Positions 1 to 15,385 are shown, counted from the first letter of the stretch. The stretch: 15,385 nucleotides of DNA from an uncultured bacterium (GCA_964521965.1 CAZFUM010000046.1:1-15385), one strand, 5' to 3'. Made by a program: numbers and translations. Notes: generated by a model not told the origin, from the sequence alone.

Positions 1-720
1 CCCTATGTTTTCTTAGCTGCTGCCTTTGCCAGCCCCGTGGTTTTTCTCTCACCCACCCCCACCCCCTCTTATTCTGCCTCGCGCACCGCCACAGTTACTC
101 GGTCTGCCTCGCCGACATTTAGCGACAGCCCGACCCCTTCAGCGCCCACGGCGACGCGTTCTGCCACAGCAAGCGCCACTGAGTCAGCCAGCCCGTCGCC
201 TAGCCCCACGGCCAGCCCGACGCTTGCTGACAGCGCCACGGTTTCGCCTACTTTCACCGATGTGCCGGCTGGCAGCAGCCCGACGGCTACGCTCACAGCT
301 ACTTTAGTTGAAACTTATACCAACACCCCGACACCTAGTGTCAGCCCGACTGCCAGCGACACGGCGAGTCTTAGTGCAACGCCCAGCAACGTGGTCGTTG
401 GCCCTAGTCTGACCAACACCTTGGTCGCGCCCTGCTGCGTTAATGGCCAGGTGATTGATGCCCAGGCCGTGCCCAACCCTGCCTGGGGCTCGGCAGTCTT
501 GTTGGGCGTGAAGCTCGATGCCGCTGCATCTAAGATACGCGTGAGCATTTACAGCAGCGCGCACACATTAGTTTGGAAGGGAAGCTTTGAGAGCGGCTAT
601 GCCTTGGGTTGGAATAGCCTTGCCTTGCCACCCCTTTCATTGGCTTCAGGGTCCTACTACTTGGTGGTCGATAGCGGGGCTGCGCCCAAGAAAGTTGTAA
701 AAGCGTTTATTTATCGCTGA
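1..720 (+). CDS. Secreted Ser/Thr/Pro-rich protein with a T9SS-type (Por_Secre_tail / FlgD-Ig-like) C-terminal sorting domain. It is 5'-partial: frame 1 is open from nt 1, and the GTG at 37 is only the first in-window start.
   Basis: Frame 1 is open from the window start. It codes a long S/T/P/A low-complexity region. The C-terminal ~110 aa (nt ~388-720) reads VPNPA...IRVSIYSSAHTLVWKG...GWNSLAL...SGSYYLVVDSGAAPKKVVKAFIYR. It aligns by eye with the C-terminus of the 1246-aa protein (YPNPS...VTVFDLLGEKIAVWDKG...GWACWDLKN...PGLYYLMLVVDGKLIWGKMTIRP) and with the general T9SS CTD pattern (xPNP, alternating beta-strands, G.YY motif, basic C-terminus). Confidence 0.6.
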   Translation, partial: PYVFLAAAFASPVVFLSPTPTPSYSASRTATVTRSASPTFSDSPTPSAPTATRSATASATESASPSPSPTASPTLADSATVSPTFTDVPAGSSPTATLTATLVETYTNTPTPSVSPTASDTASLSATPSNVVVGPSLTNTLVAPCCVNGQVIDAQAVPNPAWGSAVLLGVKLDAAASKIRVSIYSSAHTLVWKGSFESGYALGWNSLALPPLSLASGSYYLVVDSGAAPKKVVKAFIYR

Positions 721-730
721 AATAGATTGA

Positions 731-1774
731 ATGAAAGCCAACAGCTACCTCATCTGCCCCAATCCCTTTAAAGGTACCTACACAGCCCTGCAGGCTGCGC
801 GCCTGCTTGCCCGCAAGGTCAGGCAAGCTGACCCTCAGGCGCGCATAAGCCTCTTGCCCCTAGCTGACGGCGGGCCTGGCACGCTCGAGGCAGTGCATGC
901 TGCCCGCGGAGGCCAGTGGCGCAAAGCGCGGGTGCGCGGGCCTTTGGGTAAGACTGTGAGGGCGCGTTGGCTTAAATTGGGGCGTATTGCTGTGATCGAA
1001 TCTGCCGAGGCGATAGGGCTGCAAGTTCTAAAAAGTGGCAGGGGTAACGCGAAGAGTTCGTTGCAAGCGAGCAGTTTTGGCTTGGGTCAACTTATCTTGG
1101 CGGCTCAGCGAGCTGGCTGTCGTGAGATTTGGATAGGATTAGGCGGTAGTTGCACGAGCGATGGCGGCAAGGGCATGGCCCAGGCTCTGGGCTGGCGTTT
1201 TTTGGATAATCAGGGTAGTGAATTAAAAAGTGGCGGAAAAAGTTTAGTGGACCTTGCCACCGCGCTTCCTTCTAATAAAAAATTATTTAGGACGCGTATT
1301 CACATTCTAAGCGACGTTAAAAATCAATTAAATGGCCCGCAAGGCGCGGCCCGAATATTTTCACCGCAAAAAGGCGCTGGGCCCCGTGAAGTCAAAATCT
1401 TGCAGCGGGGGCTGGCTCGACTCTCAAAGATTTGTGGGGGCAAGCAGGCCAAGCGGGCTGGTGCTGGCGCCGCAGGCGGTTTGGGTTATGGCCTGCTGGC
1501 GTTTGCGGGCGCGCGCATGGAGCCCGGGGCTGATACGTTGATGAAATGGGCGGGTTTTAGCGCGCGTTTAAAGCACTGTGATATTTTGGTGACGGGTGAG
1601 GGGTGCTTTGATCGCTCGTCCAGCATGGGCAAATTGCCATGGCGCTTGGCCCAAGCCGGGCTCAAAGCTAACAAAAAAGTCTGGATCGTGGCAGGCCAAG
1701 TGGCCTGGCGACCCAGACTTAAAGATTTGACTCTCATTGATTTGAAAATTAATCGCTATTTTGGCGCTCTTTAA
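731..1774 (+). CDS. glxK: Glycerate kinase (GlxK/GarK family, glycerate 2-/3-kinase).
   Basis: N-terminal ICPNPFKG (compare IAPDSFKGS), LADGGPGT, GLGGSCTSDGGKGMAQALG, GAGAAGGLGYGLL and LVTGEGCFDRSSSMGK are family-typical motifs. The 347-aa length is appropriate. Confidence 0.8.
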   Translation: MKANSYLICPNPFKGTYTALQAARLLARKVRQADPQARISLLPLADGGPGTLEAVHAARGGQWRKARVRGPLGKTVRARWLKLGRIAVIESAEAIGLQVLKSGRGNAKSSLQASSFGLGQLILAAQRAGCREIWIGLGGSCTSDGGKGMAQALGWRFLDNQGSELKSGGKSLVDLATALPSNKKLFRTRIHILSDVKNQLNGPQGAARIFSPQKGAGPREVKILQRGLARLSKICGGKQAKRAGAGAAGGLGYGLLAFAGARMEPGADTLMKWAGFSARLKHCDILVTGEGCFDRSSSMGKLPWRLAQAGLKANKKVWIVAGQVAWRPRLKDLTLIDLKINRYFGAL

Positions 1775-2087
1775 TTAATTTCAGTGCCTTGCGCTCGGCG
1801 ACAACTTTCTTCAGCGCAGCTTGGGAATTTTGATTGCGGTAGTTGTAGTCCAGCGAGTCGCGCCAAAGAAGTTCGGCTGTGCCGTATTTGTTGGCTAGAT
1901 ATGCCTCAAGGCCCCTTTGATAAAGTCGATCACTCTCTTTGCGTTCGTAGGCTGTTACTTTTTTGGGCGTTGCTTTGGCGACCGGTCTCGACTTGCTTGG
2001 ATAAATGTTCCGGCAACCTGCTATGCCCGGCGCTGCGCCTATAAAGACGGCAAGGGCAGCACCGCAGGCTAGCTGGTTAAATTTCAT
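1749..2087 (-). CDS. Small lipoprotein of unknown function, last gene of the minus-strand operon.
   Basis: The signal peptide MKFNQLACGAALAVFIGAAPGIAGC carries a lipobox (IAG|C). The rest is hydrophilic and rich in K/E/R, and looks helical. A 4-nt start/stop overlap with the upstream SPFH gene suggests translational coupling. Confidence 0.5.
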   Translation of the reverse strand: MKFNQLACGAALAVFIGAAPGIAGCRNIYPSKSRPVAKATPKKVTAYERKESDRLYQRGLEAYLANKYGTAELLWRDSLDYNYRNQNSQAALKKVVAERKALKLIKERQNSD

Positions 2088-2953
2088 TCTTCGTCTTTGC
2101 GCTTTCTGATCGGCAGCGGAGCCAGGCCAGCCAGGTCGCCAATCACATTCACGAGATCTTTGTCAGCGGGCAATACAATTTTAGAATTGTGAGAGAGTGA
2201 TTTTTCGACGGCTTCGATGCGGCGTAAGACTTGCGCGTTGCCCACAAAATACTTTTCGGCAGCTTCGTTTACCAGCGCAATGGCCGCGGCTTCGCCTTCG
2301 GCTTCGAGAATTCGCGCTGTCTTGACGCCTTCAGCTTTCTTGATGCTGGCGCGTTTTTCGCCATCGGCCTCGGTTTCATGCGCTGAAGCAAAGTCCACGG
2401 CGGCAATCTTTTCGTTCTCGGCCTTCACCACTTTGTTCATGGTTTCTTGCACATCTTTGGGCGGGTCGATTTCTTTGAGTTCGGTGCGCACAATTTCGAG
2501 GCCCCATTTGCCGGTCTCAATGGTAAGTATGCGGTGCAGTTCTTCGTTGATACGGCCGCGCTCGCTGTTGGCTGACTTGAGTGTCATGGTGCCAATGATG
2601 GCACGCAAGGTCGTGCGGGCTAAATTGACGATTTGATAGGCGTGGTTGTTGACTTGATATTGGCTCGACTTGACCGACTCTTGATCGTCTTTAACCTTGA
2701 AATAGACCTGGGCATCGACGCGCGCGTTCAAGTTATCGTTGGTGATGATTTCCTGAGGTTCGGCATCGACCATTTGTTCGGTGATGTTGACGCGATACAT
2801 ATGGTCAACAAAAGGGATGATCCAATGAAAGCCCGGGTTGGCGAAGTGAACAAAGCGACCAAAGCGCTCGATCAGGCCGCGATGGGTGGGGCGTAGTATT
2901 CGCACGCCCATTATAAAGAATAGAAATGCAAAGAATCCGATCGCTGCGTACAT
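2084..2953 (-). CDS. SPFH / band-7 (stomatin-prohibitin-flotillin-HflK/C) domain membrane protein.
   Basis: An N-terminal transmembrane helix (AAIGFFAFLFFIMGVRIL) is followed by an SPFH core (RGLIERFGRFVHFANPGFHWIIPFVD...NITEQ...ITNDNLNARVDAQVYFKV...). The C-terminus is an Ala/Glu-rich coiled-coil region, the typical stomatin-like topology. A GGAG lies 8 nt upstream of the ATG. Confidence 0.85.
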   Translation of the reverse strand: MYAAIGFFAFLFFIMGVRILRPTHRGLIERFGRFVHFANPGFHWIIPFVDHMYRVNITEQMVDAEPQEIITNDNLNARVDAQVYFKVKDDQESVKSSQYQVNNHAYQIVNLARTTLRAIIGTMTLKSANSERGRINEELHRILTIETGKWGLEIVRTELKEIDPPKDVQETMNKVVKAENEKIAAVDFASAHETEADGEKRASIKKAEGVKTARILEAEGEAAAIALVNEAAEKYFVGNAQVLRRIEAVEKSLSHNSKIVLPADKDLVNVIGDLAGLAPLPIRKRKDEE

Positions 2954-2977
2954 GGTTTGCTCCGTTGAGAAGGGCCG

Positions 2978-5900
2978 CTAGGGCCGGATGGTCATCTTAC
3001 CCCAGATCAGCTTGCCGTCCACGACTAGCATCAAATAATAGAGGCCAGGCGCGCAGGTGGCGCCGCTTGAATTTTTGAGGTCCCAACAGGCCCAGCCTTG
3101 ATTGGCCGAGCCTTGTCCTTTATCCCATACAGCTATTTTTTCACCTAGCAGGTCAAAGACCGTCACTTCAGCTTTTTGACCTGGCGCAAAGGCCACGCAG
3201 GCTCGGCCTAGGGCCTGGCTGCTGGGATTGGGATAAACCAAAAGCCCGTCGCTGACGCGGGGATAGGGCGTGGCGGTGGGGGGCACGATAGGCGTCTGGG
3301 TCAAGCTTGGGCTGGCAGTGGCGGTGGGCGTGATGCTGGGCGTGGGTGAGGCGCTGTAAGTACCCGTCACCGAGTGGGTGGGGCTTTCAGTCGCACTCGC
3401 GCTTTGTGTCGGGCTGCTGCTGCGGGTGGCGCTCGGCGTGGGTGTTGCGCTGCGGGTGGGGCTGGCGCTAAAGGTATAAGTAGCAGTGCGTGTGGCCGTC
3501 TGCGTGGCCGTGGGGCTAATGGTAGCAGTCTGCGTAGGCGTGGCCGTGGGCGTGGCAATGCCCACGCCATTGCCGCAGCCGTAAATCAAAACGCGTTGGT
3601 TGACGCTGTCAGCCACCCAAAGGCTCTCGGGCGCATTGGCTGCAACACTGCGCGGGCCATTGAGGCTGTCGCTGCCCACGGTGGCAGATAAGCTGGTGAA
3701 GCTGCTTTGGCCATAAATCAAATCTGCGTTAGGGTTGAATAAAGGGTTCCAACCCAGCACGCGTGAAAAGCCGCTGTCAGCTACAAAGAGGCGGCCCGAG
3801 CTATCGAGACCCAGTCCTTGGGGACTTGAGAGGCTTTGAGCCGAGGGCGTGAGCGAGCCCTGACCGGCCAAATTGGCGTTGAAATTCACTTGGCCTAGTA
3901 CGACAAACGCTGTCTGACTCAGGGGCGCCAAAGAATAGCCCATAACGCGGTGGTTGGCTGTGTCTGAGACCCAAAGGCGTGAGGCGTCGATCGCTACGCC
4001 CTGGGGAAAAGAGAGACTGGCTGAACTGGGTGTGCTGCCGAGATTGTTCAAGGCCGTACTGAATGAGCCACCCTGACCCCAGACTTGGTTGGCTGAAGTC
4101 GAAAGTGTAGGGTCAGAAAAATACAGCACTCGGTGGTTATTGCGGTCGGCAACCGCTAAGCGGCTAAAACTATCGCAGGCCACTTGCATAGGCAGATTGA
4201 GGCTATCGGCTGCTGCTGGGCCGCCGCGGTTAGCGCTGCTCGAGGTGAAATCTGCCTGACCCAGCAGCAGGTCAGCGCTGGCTAAGCTGGCCACCGGCGC
4301 GGTGAAATGCAAGATGCGGTGGTTACCGCTATCGGCCACCCAGAGCGCACCATTGTTAGGATCGACCGCTAGACCTTCGGGCCCGTTAAGGCTGTTAGCG
4401 GCTGTGCTGCCGCCTTGATTTGCGCTGCTGGCAGTGAAATTGACTTGTCCTAACACGCCATTGGCCGGCATGCCCATGATCATGGCTGATACGTCATTCC
4501 ATATCAGCACGCGGTGATGGTTTGTATCGGCCACATAGGCGCGGTAAGGGAAGCTGCGCGTGTCGATGGCGATGCCGCCCGGGTTGGATAGGCCCGCAGC
4601 GGTGGTTGCACCTGTGCCTGTGCTGCTGAGTGAGTTAACGCCGAGGGCGAGACAGCCAGGTTTGACCGCAGGCGGCACGGGTGTGGGTGTGGATGTGGGT
4701 GACGCTGTGTAAGTCGCTGTGACGGTAAATGTCGGCGAAATGCTAAAGGTTTCAGTGGCCGTGAGGGTGGCGGTGCGTGACACCGTGGCCGTGCGCGTGG
4801 GCGTGGCGCTGCGCGAAGACGTGGGGCTGATGGTGCCGCTATGGGTGAACGACGGGCTCAGCGTGGCGGTGATGCTTTCAGTAGGCGAAGCGCTATAGGT
4901 GGGCGATTCACTGAAAGTGCTTGACTCGGTAAAACTTGCGCTTTGAGTGGGGCTCGCTGTCTCGGTTTCGCTGGCTGTGGCGGTAGCCGTAGGAGTCTCA
5001 GAATAGCTTGGTGTAGGGCTGGCCGTCATGCTGCGCGTATAGGTTGGGGTACCGCAAGCAGGCTCTATGCTGGGGTAGGTGAAGATGACCGCTAAATTGG
5101 GGAAGAGAGCAGCTTGGTCGCAGCTCATTTCTAAGCCTGTGCGATTAGGGCAGTCAAAGTAGCTGCGTATGCCGGATGAGGCCGTGGCCCCAAAGCTGGT
5201 TGATGCCGTGTCAAAATACTGCAAGGTAATGCTGTTGAGAGTCTCAGAGAGGATAGCTTCAACCGTGATGGTATTAGCAGATTGATAGAGCTGCACGTTT
5301 TGCCATTGAATCACAGCCATGCGCAAAGGCGCGCTGCCCAGCACCGCGACGTGCACGCTGCCACCTGCGCTGGGGTCTAAGTCAGTCCAGAAGGGAGCCA
5401 CGATACACAAAGGCGAACCTGCGGCATTGAGGCAGTTGTCAGCATATTCAGTTGAATAGCCGCTAAAACGAATCAAGCCATTGGTTGAAATCGAGATGGA
5501 CTGATAAGTGGCCCCGTAAAACTTGAAATTAAAGCCCATGTCAAAATTCACGGCGCCGTCATCATTGTTGGGATCAAAATTCAGGGCTGGAGCGCTGCCC
5601 GATATATCTATCCAATTGAAGCTCGTTTCTTGCAGGGTGTAGCCAAAGACATCGCTCTTATAAATAGGCGTGCGCGTGGCGGTGGGGCTGGCGCTATAGG
5701 TTTGGCTGGCCTGGGGCGTTTCGCTGGGCGTTCCTGTCAGGGTGCCTGTATCGCTAGCGCTGGGGCTGGCACTGAATGTGGGACTGATGGTGGCAGTCTC
5801 GCTGGCGCTGGGGCTAGCTGTGCTGGTGGGACTAGGGCTAAAGGTGGGTGTGACCGTGGGCGAGGCAGTGAAGGTCGGGCTCTCGGTGGCGCTGGGGCTG

Positions 5901-6718
5901 GCGCTAAAGGTAGGTGTTTCGGTGGGGCTGGCGCTAAAGCTGGGGCTGGCCGAAAAAGTCGGGCTGATGCTAAAGGTCGGGGTGATGCTGCTCGTGGGTG
6001 ATTCAGTGGCTGTGAGGGTGCCCGTGCGGGTGGGTGTGCCGCAAGACGGCTCAGGCGAAGGATAGCTGTAACGAATGGCCAAGCTATCGGTCAAGAAAGG
6101 CTGTTGGCAAGCGATCGCTAGGCCACTGCGATTGGGGCAGTCAAAGTAGCTGCGCAGGCCAGCCACGGCCAGTGAACCTGAGCCATTGCCAGAAGTGCTC
6201 AAGTATTGAACCAGAATATCGTTGGCGCCCTCAAAGAGCACCATTTGAAACGTCACGTCACCCCCACCTACGCGCGCGGTCACGCTCGTGAACTGAAAAA
6301 TCGTGGCGCGGTTGGGGCTGATACCTTGAGTCTGATAGCGAATTTCGCCGCCTAGGCCCGGGTCTAAATCGATCCAATAGCCCGCGGCAATGCCATAAGG
6401 CGCCAGATTGGCATTTACGCAGCTGTTGCCAAAGTAGGCGCTCTGAACGCCAAATTGCAGATAGCCATTGGTAGCGACCGAAACCTTGCTATAGCCTGCG
6501 CCATAGAACTTAAAGGTAAATGGCAGGTCGATGAGCGTTGAGCCGTCATCACTGTTGGGCGCAAAGCTGGCCAAGGGAATGAGCGTGCCGCTCGTACGGA
6601 TGTCGTTCCAGAAGATGGGCGTGTCTTGTCCGACATAACCAAAAGTATCGCTGACGCTGACGGCCGCCAATCTCGCGGCGCATAGGCCGAGCGCAGCGAT
6701 GAGGGTCAGTCGCCTCAT
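2978..6718 (-). CDS. Giant secreted or cell-surface protein of 1246 aa. Order: signal peptide, NIDO-like domain 1, STP linker, NIDO-like domain 2, STP linker, six-bladed NHL-repeat beta-propeller, STP linker, T9SS-type C-terminal sorting domain.
   Basis: Signal peptide MRRLTLIAALGLCAARLAAVS. Two homologous ~205-aa domains each carry F.FKFYG..Y..(V/I)S(V/I).TNG..(Q/R)F and ...APFWTDLDPSAGG / APYG..AGYWIDLDPGLGG, which is the NIDO hallmark iaPfWaDvD..gG. Each also ends in a conserved SYFDCPNR(S/T)GL...C. Six (V/A)(A/S)D..N(H/Q)R(V/I) blades are present (YVADTNHHRVLIW, WVADSGNHRILHF, AVADRNNHRVLYF, WVSDTANHRVMGY, FVADSGFSRVLGW, WVADSVNQRVLIY), which is the NHL repeat. The C-terminal 86 aa begin YPNP and end ...GKMTIRP. 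Confidence 0.85.
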   Translation of the reverse strand: MRRLTLIAALGLCAARLAAVSVSDTFGYVGQDTPIFWNDIRTSGTLIPLASFAPNSDDGSTLIDLPFTFKFYGAGYSKVSVATNGYLQFGVQSAYFGNSCVNANLAPYGIAAGYWIDLDPGLGGEIRYQTQGISPNRATIFQFTSVTARVGGGDVTFQMVLFEGANDILVQYLSTSGNGSGSLAVAGLRSYFDCPNRSGLAIACQQPFLTDSLAIRYSYPSPEPSCGTPTRTGTLTATESPTSSITPTFSISPTFSASPSFSASPTETPTFSASPSATESPTFTASPTVTPTFSPSPTSTASPSASETATISPTFSASPSASDTGTLTGTPSETPQASQTYSASPTATRTPIYKSDVFGYTLQETSFNWIDISGSAPALNFDPNNDDGAVNFDMGFNFKFYGATYQSISISTNGLIRFSGYSTEYADNCLNAAGSPLCIVAPFWTDLDPSAGGSVHVAVLGSAPLRMAVIQWQNVQLYQSANTITVEAILSETLNSITLQYFDTASTSFGATASSGIRSYFDCPNRTGLEMSCDQAALFPNLAVIFTYPSIEPACGTPTYTRSMTASPTPSYSETPTATATASETETASPTQSASFTESSTFSESPTYSASPTESITATLSPSFTHSGTISPTSSRSATPTRTATVSRTATLTATETFSISPTFTVTATYTASPTSTPTPVPPAVKPGCLALGVNSLSSTGTGATTAAGLSNPGGIAIDTRSFPYRAYVADTNHHRVLIWNDVSAMIMGMPANGVLGQVNFTASSANQGGSTAANSLNGPEGLAVDPNNGALWVADSGNHRILHFTAPVASLASADLLLGQADFTSSSANRGGPAAADSLNLPMQVACDSFSRLAVADRNNHRVLYFSDPTLSTSANQVWGQGGSFSTALNNLGSTPSSASLSFPQGVAIDASRLWVSDTANHRVMGYSLAPLSQTAFVVLGQVNFNANLAGQGSLTPSAQSLSSPQGLGLDSSGRLFVADSGFSRVLGWNPLFNPNADLIYGQSSFTSLSATVGSDSLNGPRSVAANAPESLWVADSVNQRVLIYGCGNGVGIATPTATPTQTATISPTATQTATRTATYTFSASPTRSATPTPSATRSSSPTQSASATESPTHSVTGTYSASPTPSITPTATASPSLTQTPIVPPTATPYPRVSDGLLVYPNPSSQALGRACVAFAPGQKAEVTVFDLLGEKIAVWDKGQGSANQGWACWDLKNSSGATCAPGLYYLMLVVDGKLIWGKMTIRP
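2981..3238 (-). other. T9SS-type C-terminal sorting domain (Por_Secre_tail / FlgD-Ig-like beta-sandwich), residues ~1161-1246.
   Basis: YPNPSSQALGRACVAFAPGQKAEVTVFDLLGEKIAVWDKGQGSANQGWACWDLKNSSGATCAPGLYYLMLVVDGKLIWGKMTIRP has an xPNP start, a vydl.G..v pattern, a W.D..N..G core, sGvYyl and a basic C-terminus. Confidence 0.6.
3239..3583 (-). repeat. Thr/Pro/Ala/Ser-rich low-complexity linker 3 (residues ~1046-1160), between the NHL propeller and the C-terminal domain.
   Basis: Codes TPTATPTQTATISPTATQTATRTATYTFSASPTRSATPTPSATRSSSPTQSASATESP... It generates spurious ORFs 3367..3570 and 3374..3691. Confidence 0.6.
3584..4663 (-). other. Six-bladed NHL-repeat beta-propeller domain (residues ~686-1045).
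   Basis: Six evenly spaced (~55-60 aa) repeats match the ..(W/Y/F)V(A/S)D..N(H/Q)R(V/I)..(F/W/Y) NHL signature, as in the PknD sensor domain. Confidence 0.7.
4664..5041 (-). repeat. Ser/Thr/Pro-rich low-complexity linker 2 (residues ~560-685).
   Basis: Codes TASPTPSYSETPTATATASETETASPTQSASFTESSTFSESPTYSASPTES... with biased composition. Confidence 0.6.
5042..5656 (-). other. NIDO-like extracellular domain, copy 2 (residues ~355-559).
   Basis: Motifs FNFKFYGATYQSISISTNGLIRF, IVAPFWTDLDPSAGGSVHVA, TITVEAILSE...LQYF and SYFDCPNRTGLEMSC. Conserved positions are shared with copy 1 over the full length, so this is an internal duplication. Confidence 0.5.
5657..6028 (-). repeat. Ser/Thr/Pro-rich low-complexity linker 1 (residues ~231-354) with imperfect nucleotide tandem repeats.
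   Basis: Codes SPTFSASPS-type units. On the + strand, ggggctggcgctaaag-like units recur (for example near 5871, 5921 and 5939). The linker generates spurious antisense and alternate-frame ORFs such as 5742..6065. Confidence 0.65.
6029..6655 (-). other. NIDO-like extracellular domain, copy 1 (residues ~22-230).
   Basis: Motifs FTFKFYGAGYSKVSVATNGYLQF, LAPYGIAAGYWIDLDPGLGGEIRY, VTFQMVLFEG...LVQY and SYFDCPNRSGLAIAC. Confidence 0.45.
6656..6718 (-). other. Signal peptide of the giant protein (residues 1-21).
   Basis: MRRLTLIAALGLCAARLAAVS has a positive N-terminus, a hydrophobic core and an A-x-V-S cleavage region. Confidence 0.6.
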
Positions 6719-7953
6719 GGCGCCACCACGATCAAAATATCACTGGCAGGGCCTTCGACACCATCACTGCCTAGGGGACGCACAAAGAATTTATAGCTGC
6801 GGCCGCGTTCGAGGTTTTTTAATTTTTGCTGCGTCTTGTTGATGGGTTTGATATTCAACTTGTCGAGGTTGACGCCCCAGTCAGCGTAGAGATTATAGCC
6901 TTCGACGCGTTCATTGGCGTCTTGCCACCGCAGTCGAAGCCCATCCGGTTCGCGTTCGCTGCCCAGGCCATAGGGTGCCGAGAGGCTAGCTCCGCGTGGG
7001 CCGGGCAGTCTGGCGTTTTCAAATCGAAGGCTTAAGCCAAAGCGGTGTTGCGCTGGCAGGGGCCCCACGCTGAGCAAGGCATAGTTGAGTTCAAGGTTGG
7101 GCTCAAAGATGACGCCTGCACCCGCGCTTAGGCGCGCGTCTTCAGTAGTCAAGAAGCCTTGGGCGATGCCGAGACGCAAGAAATAGCGCGAGAGCTTTTC
7201 TGATTTGCTGATTGCATCAAAGTCAGTCGAGCGAAAACCAAATTCGAGCCCGGCCATGGCGCGGGCCTGGCCTTCGTTGGGCAAAGCTTGGGCATCGAGA
7301 CTGAAGCGAGTTAGGTTATTTAAAAATGCGAGGCTGATGCCACCTTGCACACGTAAGGCCAGTGGAAAGTTTTTTAAGTGGCCGTCGATACCTGTGCCCA
7401 TATTTTGCGCAGCCAGGCCCCAGCGCAGGCGGGGCAGCAAGGGTCCTTGCAGGCCGACATCAGCGGCAAAGGCCGAGGCCTCGCTGCCGGCTAGATTTTG
7501 GCGAAAGTATTTGAGTTCGAAACCTAAGCGCCAGCGGGGCACAATTTCAAAACCTAGTCCAAGGCCTAGGAGCAGGTCTTGGTCGCCAAATTCACCGAGT
7601 ATATTGCCGAAGCCGTCGGTGAGTTTATCTTGGTCAAAAAGGTAGGCGGCTCGAATGCCTAAGCCCACGCCTTGAGAGAGGCCTAAGCCAAGCGACAAAT
7701 TTGAAAATTGCGTGCCCAAGAAGCCTAGGCTGTGGCCCGCATTGAGGCTGGCGCCGCGCAGCTTGGCCAGGCCCGCAGGGTTTAAACCCAGCGAGCTTTC
7801 TTGGTCAGCCGCAGCCACCCAGGCTTGGCCCAAGCTCAAGGCTCGGGGCTGCAAGGGGTCAGCCAAAAAGAGGGCCCCGCTTTGGCCCAAGGCCAAGGCT
7901 TGCTGGGTCAAGCCAGCGTAAAGCCCTATAAAATAAAGTAGGAATCGGCGCAT
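6715..7953 (-). CDS. Outer-membrane beta-barrel protein with a C-terminal fibronectin type III-like domain. It may be a T9SS-associated barrel of PorP/SprF or PorQ type (tentative). It is the first gene of the minus-strand operon.
   Basis: Signal peptide MRRFLLYFIGLYAGLTQQALA. Residues ~22-320 are rich in Gly and aromatic residues with alternating hydrophobic beta-strand segments (GLGLGFEIVPRWRLGFELKYF, GISLAFLNN, FGLSLRF). Early in the mature part, QQ...LGLNPAGL is reminiscent of the PorP/SprF N-terminal NPA region. Residues ~333-412 (PDGLRLRWQ...YNLYADW...SYKFFVRPLGSDGVEGPASDILIVVAP) look like FN3. Its TGA overlaps the ATG of the giant gene (ATGA). Confidence 0.6.
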   Translation of the reverse strand: MRRFLLYFIGLYAGLTQQALALGQSGALFLADPLQPRALSLGQAWVAAADQESSLGLNPAGLAKLRGASLNAGHSLGFLGTQFSNLSLGLGLSQGVGLGIRAAYLFDQDKLTDGFGNILGEFGDQDLLLGLGLGFEIVPRWRLGFELKYFRQNLAGSEASAFAADVGLQGPLLPRLRWGLAAQNMGTGIDGHLKNFPLALRVQGGISLAFLNNLTRFSLDAQALPNEGQARAMAGLEFGFRSTDFDAISKSEKLSRYFLRLGIAQGFLTTEDARLSAGAGVIFEPNLELNYALLSVGPLPAQHRFGLSLRFENARLPGPRGASLSAPYGLGSEREPDGLRLRWQDANERVEGYNLYADWGVNLDKLNIKPINKTQQKLKNLERGRSYKFFVRPLGSDGVEGPASDILIVVAP

Positions 7954-7962
7954 GCCGAGCCT

Positions 7963-7991
7963 ATGCTAGGGCCCTTGTTGCTGGCTGTCAA
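7963..7991 (-). promoter_or_regulatory. Putative sigma70-type promoter for the minus-strand operon: -35 TTGACA (complement of 7986-7991), 17-nt spacer, -10 TAGCAT (complement of 7963-7968). It would leave a very short leader or leaderless mRNA.
   Basis: On the minus strand a perfect TTGACA hexamer sits 17 nt from TAGCAT (4/6 of TATAAT), ending ~9 nt before the ATG at 7953. No Shine-Dalgarno is present. This is a by-eye consensus match only. Confidence 0.3.
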
Positions 7992-8114
7992 GAAAGCCCA
8001 GCTTTGCAAGGTTTGACGCTATATATGAAGAGAATTGCGCAAAGAATCTGGGTTTAGCTGCAAAGTGTGAGGGCGCCTATTATTTGCTAAGATAAGGGAC
8101 TTTTCGAGGCATGA

Positions 8115-8666
8115 GTGACTGACGACGAGCTTTATCAAGGCATGTTGAACGGCGAAAAGCAGGCCTTTGATGAATTCTATGGGCACACCAAAGAGACGGT
8201 TGAAAAAGTCTGCGCCTATTTCTTGGGTGAAGACCCAGCCATGGTTCAGGCCGCCGTGGGCGCCTATCATCACGCCTTTGAACAGATCAAGGCCAAGAAA
8301 AAGCCCGAGCTGCCGCCCAAAGCTTGGATGTCGGTGCTGGCGGTGCGCGAATGTTTTCCTGTGATTGCCAAATACCGCGATGACTTTGATGCCCAGAGCC
8401 AGGCCATGGAGCTCATGGCCAGCCAGATACCTGCCTTGCAAGAGATCAGTCAGGACCCCAAAGAGCGCGTAGGCTTTATGGTTCGCGGTGAGGTTGAAGA
8501 CCTGCCTGATCCGCACCGCGAGTTTCTCTCGTTTTATGAGTTGCAAGGCCTCTCGTTTCTTGAGATCGCCAAGCGCCTGGGCCAGAGCTGGTCCACGGTC
8601 GTGACCAAGCTGCACGCGGGCCGCCAGGCCTTGGTGCGCAAAGTCAAAGAACAGTTTGGGGTTTGA
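8115..8666 (+). CDS. ECF-type RNA polymerase sigma-70 family factor with a GTG start.
   Basis: Region 2-like: LYQGMLNGEKQAFDEFYGHTKETVEKVCAYFLG...AVGAYHHAFEQI and AWMSVLAVRECFPVIAKYR. Region 4 HTH: LPDPHREFLSFYELQGLSFLEIAKRLGQSWSTVVTKLHAGRQALVRKV. The 183-aa length is typical of ECF sigmas. Confidence 0.85.
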   Translation: MTDDELYQGMLNGEKQAFDEFYGHTKETVEKVCAYFLGEDPAMVQAAVGAYHHAFEQIKAKKKPELPPKAWMSVLAVRECFPVIAKYRDDFDAQSQAMELMASQIPALQEISQDPKERVGFMVRGEVEDLPDPHREFLSFYELQGLSFLEIAKRLGQSWSTVVTKLHAGRQALVRKVKEQFGV

Positions 8667-9544
8667 GTGTGGCTGAGCTGAACGTCGAACAAGCCCAAAA
8701 GCTGGCCCGTGATTTCCTCACCGGGCGGGGCGGTCCTGCTATTAGTGAAGACGCTCGCCGAGCCATGCAGGGCGATGAGCAGTTGGCTCTCGAGTTGCTT
8801 CAGCAGATGCAGACGGCGCTTGACGAGATAGCGCCCGCGCCCTTCACGCCGGACCAATGGCGCGAGGTTGATGCCCGTGTGCGCAGTTTGATCGCGCCCC
8901 TGGCCAAGTCTCGCTTTGGATTCATTGGCCGATTCTTTAGCAAGCTCTTTAGCCGCAAGCCTAAAGAAAAGGTTGAAGAGTCGAGTAGCCGCGTCAAGCG
9001 TCGGGGTGGGGTAGCCCCGGTCGTCGCGCCTGAGCCAACGGGACTTGTCGCCGCAAACGTGGATGGCATGGAAGAGATGGCGCCCATTGCCGCGCCGGCT
9101 GCCCTGCCTGAGGTTCCTTCCGGGGCCGCCGCCGCTGTCGTCGTTGCTGAGCCGCCGCCTGTCAAAGCCAAGCGGGTTCTGCCGGTTAAAAAAATTGCCC
9201 TGACTTTGGGCGCCTTCTTAGTACTGGGCGGCTTGGGTTATGGCGTCATGCTCTTGCACCCTATGGATCGCTGGCGCGCTTGGCGTGCCAGCAAAGTGGT
9301 CGTGCCGCTGCCCAGCCCTGTGCCGACCCTGGCGCCTCAGCCCACGCTGCCCCCCACGCCTCAGCCTAGCCCTACGCCGAAAGGCCCGCCTGCGCGAGGT
9401 TTTGATAAACCAGCCTACGATGCGCTGCCCGCCGAGTTGCCGCCGCAAACACCTCAGCCTGCAGGCGTAGCCTTGCATTTGAAGGGGCTTGAGGCCCAAG
9501 ACTCGACAGGGCAAAATCGTCTGCCTTTACCCGCCCCCCAATGA
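8663..9544 (+). CDS. Putative anti-sigma factor: single-pass membrane protein with a Pro-rich extracytoplasmic C-terminus, translationally coupled to the ECF sigma gene.
   Basis: The TTG start overlaps the sigma stop by 4 nt (GTG at 8669 is an alternative). A ~190-aa cytoplasmic region is followed by one transmembrane helix (IALTLGAFLVLGGLGYGVMLL) and a proline-rich tail (PLPSPVPTLAPQPTLPPTPQPSPTPKGPP...). Position and topology are typical of ECF-cognate anti-sigma factors, but no recognisable ASD motif was confirmed. Confidence 0.5.
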   Translation: MSVAELNVEQAQKLARDFLTGRGGPAISEDARRAMQGDEQLALELLQQMQTALDEIAPAPFTPDQWREVDARVRSLIAPLAKSRFGFIGRFFSKLFSRKPKEKVEESSSRVKRRGGVAPVVAPEPTGLVAANVDGMEEMAPIAAPAALPEVPSGAAAAVVVAEPPPVKAKRVLPVKKIALTLGAFLVLGGLGYGVMLLHPMDRWRAWRASKVVVPLPSPVPTLAPQPTLPPTPQPSPTPKGPPARGFDKPAYDALPAELPPQTPQPAGVALHLKGLEAQDSTGQNRLPLPAPQ

Positions 9545-9554
9545 AAGGTAAGCC

Positions 9555-10604
9555 GTGAGTGAAAACTTGAGTATTGCCGAAACCCTCGATGAGCTCGACA
9601 AAGAGATTCTTAATGTCGTGCAGAGTGAGTTTCCGCTGGTCACTAAGCCCTATGAGGCTGTGGCTCAGCGATTGGGTGTGAGCGAAGACGAGGTGCTCAA
9701 GCGCATGGCGGTTTTGAAAGAGAAGCAAGTCATACGCCAGACCTCGGCCATTTTTGACACGCGCGCCTTGGGCTATAAGAGCACCTTAGTGGCCATGAAA
9801 TTTGACGAGGCTAAACTTGACGCTGGCGCAGATGTGATCAGCCGTCATCCTGGCGTCAGCCATAACTATAAGCGTGAGCATGCCTATAACCTCTGGTTCA
9901 CCATTGCGGTGCCGCACGAAGCCAACCTGAAGCGTATCATCGACAAGCTGCATGCTGATTCGGGCGCCGAAGACACCATTATTTTGCCTACGCTGAGGCT
10001 TTATAAGATCGGCGTGAACTTTGACATGAAGAAAGAAATTAGTACTGAGAAGGGTGGTGAAGTCAGGCCCGATATGAAATTGGGCGACTACCGTCAAGTA
10101 ACCGAAGAAGATAGGGCCGCTATTCGCGTGGCCCAAGAAGACCTGCCCTTGGTGAGTGAGCCCTTTAAAGCTTGGGCTGAGCAACTTGGCTGGGATGAAA
10201 AACGCTTCTTCGACTGGCTGGCTGATTTTAAAGAGCGCAAGTTTTATCGTCGTTTTGCCAGCATCTTACGCCACCGCAACGCCGGCTTTGCCGACAACGC
10301 CATGGCGGTCTGGATCGTGCCCGAAGAGCAGGCCGAAGAAATGGGCCTCAAAATGGCAGCTTTCAAAGCGGTCACCCACTGCTATCGTCGCCCGACATTT
10401 CCGAGCTGGCCCTATAACGTCTTTACCATGGTGCATGGCCGCAGCAAAGATGACTGCGAGTCGGTGGTTGAAGCGATTCGAAAGGATTGTGGCCTGGCAG
10501 AATTCAAGCTGCTTTATTCAACCAAGGAATATAAAAAAGAGCGCGTCAAATATTTCTGTGAGACCGCAGACCAGATCATGGTCGACGCGGTCGCCCAGAC
10601 CTAA
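9555..10604 (+). CDS. Fused siroheme decarboxylase-like protein (NirD/NirL or AhbA/AhbB family), with tandem Lrp/AsnC-like modules.
   Basis: The second half, AFKAVTHCYRRPTFPSWPYNVFTMVHGRSK, closely matches NirL/NirH/AhbB [27 protein letters not shown]. The first half, ISRHPGVSHNYKREHAYNLWFTIAV, matches the NirD/AhbA VSHNYeR...yNlWF motif. Each half starts with an AsnC-type HTH (LDKEILNVVQSEFPLVTKPYEAVAQRLGVSEDEVLKRMAVL and DRAAIRVAQEDLPLVSEPFKAWAEQLGW). Confidence 0.75.
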   Translation: MSENLSIAETLDELDKEILNVVQSEFPLVTKPYEAVAQRLGVSEDEVLKRMAVLKEKQVIRQTSAIFDTRALGYKSTLVAMKFDEAKLDAGADVISRHPGVSHNYKREHAYNLWFTIAVPHEANLKRIIDKLHADSGAEDTIILPTLRLYKIGVNFDMKKEISTEKGGEVRPDMKLGDYRQVTEEDRAAIRVAQEDLPLVSEPFKAWAEQLGWDEKRFFDWLADFKERKFYRRFASILRHRNAGFADNAMAVWIVPEEQAEEMGLKMAAFKAVTHCYRRPTFPSWPYNVFTMVHGRSKDDCESVVEAIRKDCGLAEFKLLYSTKEYKKERVKYFCETADQIMVDAVAQT

Positions 10605-10606
10605 AC

Positions 10607-11572
10607 ATGGCCCTCGCGGCGCCCAGCCTAGATCAGGCATTGATCGATGACATCGCCCGGCTTAAGGCCGAGCGCCATGCCGTCATCTTGGCGCACAATT
10701 ATCAGAAGCCTGAGATTCAAGAGATCGCAGATTTTGTGGGCGATTCATTAGGCTTATCCCGCAAGGCTCAAAGCAGCCAGGCTGACGTGATTGTTTTTTG
10801 TGGTGTGCATTTTATGGCTGAAACGGCCAGCATTTTGAATCCTAGCAAGAAGGTCTTGTTGCCTGACCTGCTGGCGGGTTGCTCGATGGCCGATATGATT
10901 AGCGCTGATATTTTACTCGATCTTAAAGAGAAGAATCCTGGCGCTTTGGTCTGCAGCTATGTCAATACCACGGCCGAGATTAAGGCCGAGAGCGACATTT
11001 GCTGCACATCAAGCAATGCCGTCGAAGTGGTCAAGAGCCTGCCTGCTGATAAGCCTGTGATTTTTGTGCCGGATAAGTATCTTGGCGCTTGGGTGCAAAA
11101 GCAGACAGGCCGCGACATGATTCTTTACGATGGCTGGTGCCCCGTGCACATGGAACTCAAACAGCACGGAATTGCCCAGCTCAAGAAAGAGCATCCCCAG
11201 GCTTTGGTGGTGGCCCATCCTGAATCGCCGCTAGAAGTTTCAAGCCAGGCCGACGTGGTCTGTTCGACCGAACAGATGGTGCATTTTTGCCGCGAGTCAA
11301 AAGACAACGAATTTATCATTGCCACCGAGACCGGTATTTTGCACAAACTCAAGCGCGAGAACCCCGAAAAGCGTTTCTACGCCGCCAATGACCTGGCCAT
11401 CTGCCCCCACATGAAGATGAATAACCTTGAGCGCGTGCGTGAGTCTTTGCTGACCCTGAAGCCCGAGGTTAAGGTGCCCGAAGTCATTCGTGAGAGGGCC
11501 TGGGCCCCCATACAACGCATGCTTGATTTGAATTTGCCTTATCAAGAAACTTTTGTGGGGTGCAAGTGCTAA
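10607..11572 (+). CDS. nadA: Quinolinate synthase NadA.
   Basis: ILAHNYQKPEIQEIADFVGDSLGLSRKA...IVFCGVHFMAETASILNPSKKVLLPDLLAGCSMAD, YDGWCPVHM and LAICPHMKMNNLERV match NadA signature regions, including the three spaced Cys motifs for the [4Fe-4S] cluster. Confidence 0.85.
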   Translation: MALAAPSLDQALIDDIARLKAERHAVILAHNYQKPEIQEIADFVGDSLGLSRKAQSSQADVIVFCGVHFMAETASILNPSKKVLLPDLLAGCSMADMISADILLDLKEKNPGALVCSYVNTTAEIKAESDICCTSSNAVEVVKSLPADKPVIFVPDKYLGAWVQKQTGRDMILYDGWCPVHMELKQHGIAQLKKEHPQALVVAHPESPLEVSSQADVVCSTEQMVHFCRESKDNEFIIATETGILHKLKRENPEKRFYAANDLAICPHMKMNNLERVRESLLTLKPEVKVPEVIRERAWAPIQRMLDLNLPYQETFVGCKC

Positions 11573-14275: not shown

Positions 14276-14282
14276 GCCAGCC

Positions 14283-15385
14283 TTGCCGACCTTTGCACCG
14301 ATTTGGGCTCATGTGCGCCGTCATCGTCGTTTGGCGCTTTGGGGCGCCCTGGCGCTGTTCATCACGGACCTGGGCCAGCAGGCCATTCCGCTACTTCTTA
14401 AACATGCTGTTGATGATTTAAAGGGCGGCGCTGCGCTCACCATGGTGGCGCTTTGGGCCTTCTTGCGCGTGGGGGTCGTGCTCTTTCAGGCGGCTTTTCG
14501 ATATGGCTGGCGCTGGGGCCTCTTTGGTATGGCGCGTCGCGTCGAAGCAGGCTTGCGTCATGATGTTTTCGCCAAGTTTCTAAAACTGCCCCCGGCTTTT
14601 TATTTCAAGCATCGTTTGGGCGAGTTACTCTCGCGGGCCATGTCAGATCTCGCCATCATTCGTGAGTCATTGGGTTTTGGTTGGATGGCCTTGCTTGACT
14701 CGGTCACCATGGTCAGTCTGACCCTCGTTTTTATGCTTAGGCTCGATGCCAGCCTCACGGTCAGAATCTTGCTGCCCATGATTTTTCTGCCCTTGCTCAT
14801 CATGACCATGGGCCGCAAGGTTCGTCAGTATTCGCGCGAAGCGCAAACCGCGCTCGATGAACTGTCGCAGGCTGCCACTGAGAGCTTTCGCGGTGCGCGG
14901 GTGATACACGCTTATGGCCGCCAAAATGAAGAAACTGCCCGTTTTCTCGCCAAATGCGATCACTACCGCCTGCGCAACATGCGAGCCGTTCGCCTTGAGG
15001 CGATTTATTGGCCCTTGCTCACGGTGATGGCGGGCCTGGCCGAGCTGGCTCTCTTTTACTGGGGCGGCCAGGCCCTGAGTTTGGGCCGTATCAGTCTAGG
15101 CACCTTTGTGGCCCTCAATGACTATCTCATTCAAATTACCTGGCCGGTCATGGCCCTGGGTTTTTCAAGTAATCTCTATGTGCGCGGCAAAGTCAGTGTC
15201 GAACGCTTAAACGAGGTGCTCGATGCGCCCTCGGGCTTGCCTGGCGCCGCTGAAAATGAAGGTGCCCCCAGCAACCCAGTTGCCTTGCTAGAATTTCGTG
15301 GGGTGCGCTATGCCTATGAGCAGGGGCCAGAGGTTCTTAAGGGCGTGAACTTGAGCCTCAAAGCGGGTGAATGGGTGGGGCTTTG
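14283..15385 (+). CDS. ABC exporter with fused transmembrane and ATP-binding domains (MsbA/ABCB-like). It is 3'-partial and runs off the window. The start is TTG at 14283 or GTG at 14313.
   Basis: The frame is open to the window end. The N-terminus (M/L)PTFAPIWAHVRRHRRLALWGALALFITDLGQQAIPLLLKHAVDDL is the typical first transmembrane segment of ABC exporters. Further hydrophobic helices follow, then the pre-NBD segment GKVSVERLNEVLDAP...ALLEFRGVRYAYEQGPEVLKGVNLSLKAGEWVGL immediately before the Walker A position. This gene is absent from the supplied ORF track only because it has no stop in the window. Confidence 0.8.
   Translation, partial: MPTFAPIWAHVRRHRRLALWGALALFITDLGQQAIPLLLKHAVDDLKGGAALTMVALWAFLRVGVVLFQAAFRYGWRWGLFGMARRVEAGLRHDVFAKFLKLPPAFYFKHRLGELLSRAMSDLAIIRESLGFGWMALLDSVTMVSLTLVFMLRLDASLTVRILLPMIFLPLLIMTMGRKVRQYSREAQTALDELSQAATESFRGARVIHAYGRQNEETARFLAKCDHYRLRNMRAVRLEAIYWPLLTVMAGLAELALFYWGGQALSLGRISLGTFVALNDYLIQITWPVMALGFSSNLYVRGKVSVERLNEVLDAPSGLPGAAENEGAPSNPVALLEFRGVRYAYEQGPEVLKGVNLSLKAGEWVGL

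Follow-up and report, generated by a model that had tools for sequence, protein, structure and literature searches.

A PorQ-like barrel with an FN3 domain and its coupled secreted cargo: a probable carrier-cargo pair in candidate division FCPU426

Organization of the locus

The DNA considered here (GCA_964521965.1, CAZFUM010000046.1:1-15385; hereafter the window) is a complete public contig of 15,385 bp from an uncultured bacterium. Its main subject is a pair of adjoining minus-strand genes, the first encoding an outer-membrane barrel protein with a C-terminal FN3 domain and the second a secreted protein of 1246 aa, referred to below as the giant. The NadA encoded on the same contig is 80% identical to NadA of metagenome-assembled genomes labelled candidate division FCPU426, an uncultured, low-abundance lineage of soil, peat, and hot springs for which there is almost no functional literature. 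A sequence-only reading of the window had described four coupled minus-strand genes, for the barrel-FN3 protein, a NIDO/NHL protein with a T9SS-type C-terminal domain (T9SS, type IX secretion system), an SPFH protein, and a lipoprotein, lying 161 bp from a divergent pair for an extracytoplasmic function (ECF) sigma factor and anti-sigma factor. It had proposed that the four serve as a dedicated secretion and anchoring unit for one adhesin-like protein, under possible control of the ECF pair. The layout and junctions are as claimed (Table 1), and the domain identifications hold in profile searches; the functional proposal stands in part, as described below.

The four minus-strand open reading frames (ORFs) are closely packed. 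The barrel stop and giant start codons share an ATGA at 6715-6718, and the SPFH stop and lipoprotein start codons share another at 2084-2087. Between them lies the giant stop codon (TAG, 2978-2980), from which a 24-nt spacer with a GGAG leads to the SPFH start codon (ATG at 2953). The 161-bp divergent region runs from the barrel ATG (7953) to the sigma factor GTG (8115). An independent gene caller (public protein collection) gives the same four products. A scan of the window found no terminator-like sites at the gene junctions of this operon, so co-transcription of the four genes is plausible.

Table 1. Features of the barrel-giant locus, in window coordinates
Feature	Position	Strand	Evidence
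Outer-membrane barrel of the PorV/PorQ family, FN3 at C-terminus, 412 aa	6715..7953	-	NCBIfam profiles, AF2 model, Foldseek
Barrel protein residues 328-410 (FN3 domain)	6724..6972	-	Pfam fn3, AF2 model, Foldseek
Giant secreted cargo, 1246 aa	2978..6718	-	Pfam NHL and NIDO, RemA profile match, linker composition
RemA-N-like (NIDO-like) domain, copy 1	6044..6661	-	Profile comparison
RemA-N-like (NIDO-like) domain, copy 2	5033..5662	-	42% identical to copy 1
NHL-repeat beta-propeller	3614..4621	-	Pfam NHL
T9SS-type C-terminal sorting domain	2981..3238	-	TIGR04183, motifs, alignment
SPFH/Band 7 membrane protein of the stand-alone type, 289 aa, transmembrane helix at N-terminus	2084..2953	-	Band_7 2.4e-39
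Small lipoprotein, 112 aa	1749..2087	-	Lipobox, AF2 model
Candidate sigma-70-type promoter of the barrel operon, TTGACA-17-TAGCAT	7963..7991	-	Consensus scan, 10/12 matches
Divergent ECF-like sigma factor, 183 aa	8115..8666	+	Sigma70_r4_2 25.8 bits
Putative single-pass membrane anti-sigma factor, 293 aa, Pro-rich C-terminal tail	8663..9544	+	Position and 4-nt overlap with sigma stop only

The barrel protein

The predicted barrel protein consists of a signal peptide (residues 1-22), hatch helices (28-64), 14 strands (68-311), and the FN3 domain. It matches the PorV/PorQ family model (NCBIfam NF033709) over positions 2-326 of 326, at 81.1 bits against a curated cut-off of 90. The next match is to PorQ, which scores above PorV; at 50.2 bits against the 220 required over the full length, the protein lies outside the PorQ equivalog (NF033711), and the PorV equivalog model gave no match at E<=0.01. 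Its orthologues in FCPU426 score between 57 and 79 bits with the family model. More distant barrel-FN3 relatives, found with a profile built from the window protein, pass the family cut-off (157 bits at locus L015, 149 bits at L024), again with PorQ above PorV.

An AlphaFold2 (AF2) model built from an alignment of 65 relatives (pLDDT 93, pTM 0.81) has short N-terminal hatch helices, 14 strands, and a seven-strand FN3 domain, so that by AF2 and Foldseek the protein has the FadL-type 14-strand barrel with N-terminal hatch that is the fold of the PorV/PorQ family. The best Foldseek matches in the PDB are Flavobacterium johnsoniae PorV in the SprA translocon (8gl6_F, 4e-11; 6h3i_F, 1e-10), followed by FadL/TodX, and the C-terminal part of the model matches FN3 domains. 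At the sequence level the Pfam fn3 match is weak (19.8 bits, residues 330-406; 23.4 bits in the orthologue at L009). The last barrel strand ends in SLRF, an internal beta-signal at the point where ordinary PorV-like proteins terminate, making the FN3 domain an extension beyond that signal. As it follows strand 14, the topology rule for even-stranded barrels would place it in the periplasm. By profile and predicted fold, then, the window protein appears to be a divergent 14-strand barrel of the PorV/PorQ family, with FN3 added at its C-terminus. Such proteins are not confined to this window: an exhaustive profile search returned 7952 PorV-like barrels, and among the 150 best cluster representatives about 35 extend through FN3, some with two or three such domains. 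More distant PorV-like barrels at four other loci (L005-L008) lack it.

With FadL, TodX, and CymD among the structural matches, and Toluene_X and UPF0164 among the precomputed Pfam matches on relatives, the protein might instead take up hydrophobic compounds as an ordinary channel of the FadL/TodX type, with the giant next to it by accident. This is very improbable: the best profiles are those of the PorV/PorQ family and PorQ, the best folds are PorV, and the tight linkage to a protein with a sorting domain, kept across lineages while the body of that protein changes (see below), would be unexpected for an incidental neighbor.

The giant cargo protein

The giant is predicted to begin with a signal peptide (residues 1-19), followed by a first RemA-N-like domain (about 20-225), a linker, a second such domain (about 353-562), a linker, an NHL region (about 700-1035), a third linker, and the sorting domain (1161-1246). 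The three linkers are about 125 aa each, with 42-50% Ser+Thr and 12-16% Pro. Pfam recognizes NHL at 1.4e-29 and NIDO partially and marginally (25.5 bits, cut-off 25). Used as a profile, the two N-terminal domains, of about 205 aa each, match residues 25-185 of F. johnsoniae RemA at an E value of 8.3e-15. The orthologues at L002 and L009 have a single copy of this domain instead of two. Domain number in the cargo shifts fast, while barrel length stays constant. The NHL propeller is 48% identical to the cargo at L016, whose barrel is only 29% identical to the window barrel.

The sorting domain contains the motifs YPNP, FDLLGE (DLLG), and GLYY...K (GxY...K) and two conserved cysteines. For a type A sorting domain (TIGR04183 or PF18962) the threshold was 23 bits, in a match placed at the very C-terminal end of a protein that also has a Sec signal peptide. 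With TIGR04183 (Por_Secre_tail) the window giant scores 16.2 bits at full length and 22.0 as an isolated domain; its orthologues pass, at 30.3 bits in L002 and 28.4 in L009. A second match of the L002 domain is to the PorZ C-terminal domain (8.5e-8). None of the family is a PorZ equivalog (NF052228), as only the last 90 or so model positions match, at 14-50 bits, and 260 are required over the full length. The NCBIfam matches of the barrel and giant proteins (E<=0.01) include neither the type B C-terminal domain nor PorP/SprF.

The C-termini of the FCPU426 cargo proteins (window 2981-3238, L002, L009, and L019) share two invariant cysteines (AC.AF ... ACWDL) that are missing from the distant PorZ-like domains; they could form a disulfide. 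A different sorting-like domain (VPNP...GWNSL...GxYY) ends a second secreted protein, of which a fragment with a Ser/Thr/Pro linker is encoded at 1-720 of the window (plus strand, open at the contig start). The same domain is found in a GH18 enzyme at L009 (24-1376) and a 621-aa protein at L019 (1478-3343), and scores 12-14 bits with TIGR04183. These sequences suggest that FCPU426 has sorting domains of a second class, and that its sorting pathway is a general one.

Conservation of the barrel-cargo pair

Table 2 lists related loci. A cargo gene lies directly after the barrel gene in FCPU426 in the window, L001, L002, L003, L009, and the P0169 contig, and also in four distant loci (L015, L016, L018, and L024). 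The two genes overlap by 1-16 nt in every related locus with visible downstream sequence except L003, which has about 80 nt between the matches. The direct succession of barrel and cargo in all related loci where the downstream sequence can be seen is beyond what chance would give. Across the paired lineages the barrels are only 27-43% identical. In the distant loci where the end of the cargo is visible (L015, L018, and L024), the PorZ C-terminal domain fits the cargo C-terminus better than the generic type A model does. No gene for the sigma factor, the SPFH protein, or the lipoprotein is present at any of the four distant loci.

Table 2. Gene content of related loci
Locus	Gene content
L001-L004	Sigma/anti-sigma divergent from barrel, then giant
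L002	Giant of 1012-1017 aa with a single RemA-like domain, followed by lipoprotein (27% identical); SPFH missing
L009	Sigma, methyltransferase insertion, barrel, giant of 1000 aa, SPFH (85%), convergent GH18; lipoprotein missing
P0169 contig (protein records, no DNA)	Products in order of 410, 1015 (NHL), 294 (Band_7), and 96 aa
L019	Giant C-terminus, SPFH, then convergent gene
L023	SPFH (91%), lipoprotein (66%), convergent glycerate kinase; order as in window
L011	Sigma/anti-sigma orthologues adjoining nirDL-nadA; Suf genes upstream
L013	Sigma/anti-sigma orthologues adjoining nadA, no nirDL match; cardiolipin synthase upstream
L010	Histidine kinase before nirDL; no sigma
L015	Barrel overlaps 962-aa tandem-95-repeat protein; cargo C-terminus matches PorZ C-terminal domain at 1.7e-6
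L018	Barrel overlaps 1537-aa tandem-95-repeat protein; cargo C-terminus matches PorZ C-terminal domain at 2.2e-13
L024	Barrel overlaps 316-aa protein; cargo C-terminus matches PorZ C-terminal domain at 6.6e-12
L016	Barrel overlaps NHL protein, 48% identical to window propeller; cargo leaves contig before C-terminus

By this comparison of sequences the conserved unit is the barrel-FN3 protein plus a cargo with a C-terminal sorting domain, that is, the first two genes only. The proposal of a dedicated secretion and anchoring unit is supported for these two, since the pair keeps its tight junction despite the divergence of the barrels, the barrel is PorV/PorQ-like, and the cargo is both T9SS-type and RemA-like; it does not extend to the SPFH protein and lipoprotein as integral parts. 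Similarly, conservation of the gene neighborhood, which the sequence-only reading had named as a check, is found for the barrel-cargo pair, which is syntenic elsewhere, and not for the set of four, which is not consistently kept.

In L015 (2731-17227) and L018 (1-17245) the pair occupies the same position in a conserved polysaccharide/glycosylation cluster, in the order GT4, UDP-glucose dehydrogenase, a deacetylase-like gene, the barrel-FN3/cargo pair, an epimerase, a methyltransferase, and two GT2 genes. This context hints at a connection between the cargo and glycan synthesis.

The SPFH and lipoprotein genes

The SPFH protein has a great many close relatives. All 8000 scored candidates have E<=1e-40, and the top 120 are 72-84% identical to it, including proteins from Omnitrophota and Bacteroidia. 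The orthologues in these two groups (72-79% identical) are in unrelated contexts, in Omnitrophota between carD and DUF2062/antiporter genes. This is unusual conservation across phyla; for comparison, NadA from this contig shares only 47% identity with a Gemmatimonadota NadA. Either extreme purifying selection or recent spread may be responsible. The HflK and HflC models score 104.6 and 62.9 bits, both below their cut-offs (159.4 and 134.4), and the window contains neither an NfeD gene nor a second SPFH paralogue. The gene thus belongs to neither a stomatin-NfeD nor an HflKC system, as the sequence-only reading had also concluded. In L002 it is missing between the giant and the lipoprotein. Overall it behaves, to judge from these comparisons, as a near-invariant housekeeping gene located downstream of the giant in most, though not all, FCPU426 genomes.

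The lipoprotein is quite different in this respect, with a single close homologue in 5.8 billion proteins (66% identical, after the SPFH gene in L023). A 27%-identical counterpart directly follows the giant in L002, and none follows the SPFH gene in L009 or L019. It has a lipobox (APGIAGC, with Cys25), a predicted disordered tether (residues 26-45), and a TPR/MIT-like three-helix unit (46-111; AF2 pLDDT >90 for residues 41-110). A fold search of the PDB gave no significant match, the best being TPR/MIT at an E value of 0.05. BamD was considered and set aside, as the score is 15.9 bits against a cut-off of 81.4 and the similarity is that of TPR proteins in general. From its distribution, the lipoprotein appears as a variable accessory gene. 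At its 3' end it overlaps a convergent glycerate kinase gene, by 26 nt in the window (1749-1774) and 9 nt in L023 (751-759), leaving no space for an intervening terminator. The lower GC content of the SPFH and lipoprotein genes (52%, against 57-60% for the giant) was not taken as a sign of transfer, because the Ser/Thr/Pro/Ala-rich linkers account for the difference. The two genes are probably co-transcribed with the barrel-cargo pair in this genome, yet as lineage-specific passengers.

The sigma/anti-sigma pair and the barrel promoter

The N-terminus of the divergent sigma factor (MTDDE) is confirmed by its orthologues. Region 4 is just recognizable (Sigma70_r4_2, 25.8 bits, cut-off 25.7); region 2 went undetected in four orthologues, even at E<=10. 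The best NCBIfam match is SigW, over the full length, at 42.5 bits and far under its cut-off. With 25.9 bits of the 42.9 required by TIGR02937 and no detectable region 2, the protein cannot be assigned to the ECF family, although it is ECF-like in size and in its weak full-length alignments; it may belong to a very divergent ECF group. The putative anti-sigma factor has no Pfam or NCBIfam matches. It has one predicted transmembrane segment, and its N-terminal 100 or so residues are about 50% conserved in orthologues. In the window, L001, L009, and L011 the sigma-like protein is 45-52% conserved, and the overlapping membrane gene is always next to it.

Beyond this pair, positions 9555-11572 of the window contain a gene for a fused double NirD/AsnC-like protein (nirDL, 349 aa, siroheme-decarboxylase-like), tightly linked to nadA. 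The linkage is found in most FCPU426 contigs examined (L001 and L009-L012), with nirDL 70-74% identical in full-length matches; L013 has nadA and no nirDL match. The window ends inside an ABC exporter gene (14277-15385, open at its 3' end). Rfam and tRNA scans of the window found no non-coding RNA.

Several observations bear on whether the sigma factor controls the barrel operon, as the sequence-only reading had suggested. Sigma/anti-sigma orthologues occur without the barrel-cargo module in L011 and L013, and in L009 a methyltransferase gene separates sigma from barrel. The barrel has a candidate promoter of its own, TTGACA-17-TAGCAT, with 9 nt between it and the start codon, recognized by agreement with the consensus and not from a mapped transcription start. 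It is conserved in L009, as TTGACC-17-TAGCAT located 7 nt before the GTG start of the barrel gene, despite the intervening methyltransferase gene. These sequences point to a housekeeping-type promoter. An ECF-type promoter was also sought in the aligned intergenic regions, but there is no GGAAC...CGT-like motif common to the sigma and barrel upstream regions, and the only recognizable elements are sigma-70-like hexamers near the start codons. Control by the ECF pair is thus not borne out, and the sigma/anti-sigma pair appears to be a neighbor anchored to nirDL-nadA and not part of the unit.

A similar element, TTGCCA-17-TAGCAT, precedes the cardiolipin synthase gene in L013. At all three candidate FCPU426 promoters (window 7963-7991, L009 at about 6640-6690, and L013 at about 2410-2450), a TAGCAT -10 box lies 7-9 nt before the start codon and there is no Shine-Dalgarno sequence, which implies a leaderless or near-leaderless mRNA for the first gene of the operon. 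Placing -10 boxes this close to the start would seem to be a general habit of promoters in FCPU426.

These results can be set against the larger proposal, in which the barrel-FN3 protein, giant, SPFH protein, and lipoprotein are one four-protein secretion and anchoring machine, induced by the divergent ECF pair on an envelope signal. Translational coupling at all junctions would fit such a machine, and parts of the arrangement recur: the order barrel, giant, SPFH, and small ORF on the P0169 contig, giant-SPFH in L009 and L019, SPFH-lipoprotein in L023, and a sigma gene divergent from the barrel in L001-L004 as well as the window. The components nonetheless come apart. The SPFH protein has its stand-alone orthologues, 72-79% identical, in other phyla and is absent from L002 and from all the distant pairs, the lipoprotein is inconstant even within FCPU426, and the distant barrel-cargo pairs have none of the three extra genes. 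The sigma/anti-sigma genes are found without the module, nirDL is found without sigma (L010), and the barrel retains its own sigma-70-like promoter where another gene has come between. A machine of this kind is accordingly judged quite unlikely, and an ECF-controlled six-gene system is not supported.

Comparison with known systems

The statement that the locus matches no described system now seems too strong, since the pair fits the principle of a cognate PorV-like carrier with a substrate bearing a C-terminal domain, of which PorQ-PorZ and PorP/SprF with type B cargo are examples. The nearest likeness is to PorQ-PorZ of the Porphyromonas gingivalis T9SS attachment complex, where a PorV/PorQ-family barrel anchors one surface protein: PorQ holds PorZ at the surface via the uncleaved C-terminal domain of PorZ (PMC5562754, PMC10947112, PMC10202324). 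Anchoring by the window barrel is something we infer. The higher score of this barrel with PorQ than with PorV, and the match of the family's cargo C-termini to the PorZ C-terminal domain, are further points of similarity. The differences are that the window cargo lacks the PorZ propeller domains and matches in its C-terminal 90 or so residues only, and that the barrel scores far below the PorQ equivalog cut-off, has the extra FN3 domain, is encoded ahead of its cargo in overlapping genes, and comes from an FCPU426 host.

PorP/SprF carriers are encoded beside type B cargo (PMC12618676, PMC9143113). In SprB/SprF and the other F. johnsoniae pairs, as in the window pair on the present reading, a large adhesin has a dedicated carrier of its own encoded in linkage with it, and this carrier retains the cargo on the surface (PMC12618676, PMC9143113, PMC10994853). 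The window barrel, however, is from another family, the sorting domain of its cargo is type A-like or PorZ-like and not of type B, the carrier gene comes first instead of the cargo gene, and there is the FN3 extension. PorV, which carries type A substrates in general (structures 6H3I and 8GL6, of SprA-PorV-substrate complexes), has the same FadL-type 14-strand fold, and its extracellular loops bind the substrate C-terminal domain (PMC10994853), but it serves many substrates, is not encoded with one of them, and has no FN3 domain. Relative to PorQ-PorZ and PorP/SprF, then, what differs here is the FN3 fusion, the overlapping carrier-first gene order, the types of cargo, and the host lineage; the working principle is shared.

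Among cargo proteins, the gliding adhesins RemA and RemZ of F. johnsoniae have a homologous N-terminal domain and are likewise large multidomain surface proteins with C-terminal sorting domains. The giant differs in its NHL propeller and Ser/Thr/Pro stalks, and no gliding machinery is evident. The window SPFH protein, with its N-terminal transmembrane helix and Band 7 domain, is like stand-alone SPFH proteins (stomatin/QmcA-like) and those of HflKC and stomatin-NfeD; unlike the latter two it has no NfeD or SPFH paralogue with it, and its link to a barrel-cargo pair is confined to FCPU426.

A probable carrier-cargo pair

The barrel and the giant are probably a cognate pair, carrier or anchor and cargo, of the type IX secretion kind. 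In the mechanism envisaged, the giant would be exported by Sec via its signal peptide, and its C-terminal sorting domain would then be recognized at the outer membrane and captured there by its own barrel, 14-stranded and PorQ/PorV-like, through the extracellular loops. The barrel would keep the giant on the cell surface via the retained C-terminal domain, as PorQ does with PorZ. The Ser/Thr/Pro linkers would act as long, glycosylatable stalks displaying the NHL propeller and RemA-like domains as binding (adhesin- or lectin-like) modules. The FN3 domain, predicted to be periplasmic, may be the part by which the carrier docks on a hub or ring in the periplasm. A review has proposed that cognate PorV-like barrels handle specific substrates (PMC10202324). 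In known systems, carriers recognize substrates at the translocon, with the substrates bound to the extracellular loops of the carrier inside SprA and the complex removed by a periplasmic hub in an energy-driven step (PMC10994853), and the barrels of the attachment complex sit on the periplasmic PorKN ring (PMC12365241). Physical binding of barrel and cargo, retention by the sorting domain, and the role of FN3 are read here from sequence and by analogy with these systems.

Some points count against this interpretation. The barrel and the sorting domain of the window both fall just below the cut-offs of their models (81.1 against 90 bits, and 22.0 against 23), dependence of the pair on a T9SS is an assumption, and the barrel promoter is a consensus match only. 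Further, an SPFH gene follows the giant in four of the five informative FCPU426 contigs and a sigma gene is adjacent in six, a recurrence that leaves room for a lineage-specific functional link.

In FCPU426 and lineages like it, the pair might also work without a canonical T9SS, with the barrel as an autonomous surface-display device for its neighbor or as part of a reduced pathway, so far undescribed, in which the C-terminal domain is required. This candidate division is not known to be part of Bacteroidota, and reviews confine the T9SS to Bacteroidota/FCB (PMC10202324, PMC12398890). No T9SS core gene (SprA/Sov, PorK/L/M/N, PorU) was seen in about 100 kb of FCPU426 sequence, which is a very small sample, and described T9SS carriers have neither an FN3 fusion nor a gene order with the carrier first. 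Against this, a 14-strand FadL-type barrel with a plug could not alone let through a protein of 1246 aa that includes a propeller, and the best structural matches are to PorV bound to SprA. There are also the other secreted proteins in FCPU426 contigs with C-terminal domains of the sorting type (window 1-720, the GH18 enzyme, and the 621-aa protein), which argue for a general sorting pathway. Independence from a T9SS is on balance unlikely, and a cognate pair of the type IX kind is preferred.

Going further, it is conceivable, though rather doubtful at this point, that PorQ-like barrel-FN3 proteins with coupled cargo bearing a PorZ-type C-terminal domain make up a third, undescribed class of carrier and cargo beside PorV with type A and PorP/SprF with type B, widespread in uncultured lineages outside the Bacteroidota. 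The FN3 domain would then be a handle with which a periplasmic hub or track draws the loaded carrier away from the translocon or, in lineages lacking a T9SS, the barrel and cargo would be a self-contained display device.

Significance

The locus carries a warning for annotation, in that tight operon junctions do not prove that the genes serve one machine: the SPFH gene, which behaves as a housekeeping gene and hardly varies, simply travels with the pair. Current models of the T9SS have a cognate PorV-like carrier for each substrate and a periplasmic machine that pulls the loaded carrier off the translocon, and how the barrel is gripped from the periplasm is a gap in them. The barrel-FN3 family is a natural test system for this question, as these are PorQ-like carriers with a folded domain predicted to be periplasmic, each hard-wired to a single cargo with a PorZ-like C-terminal domain. 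Barrel-FN3/cargo pairs could be used in the study of carrier specificity and coupling, and they would extend carrier-cargo pairs of this kind to FCPU426, a candidate phylum about which barely anything is known.

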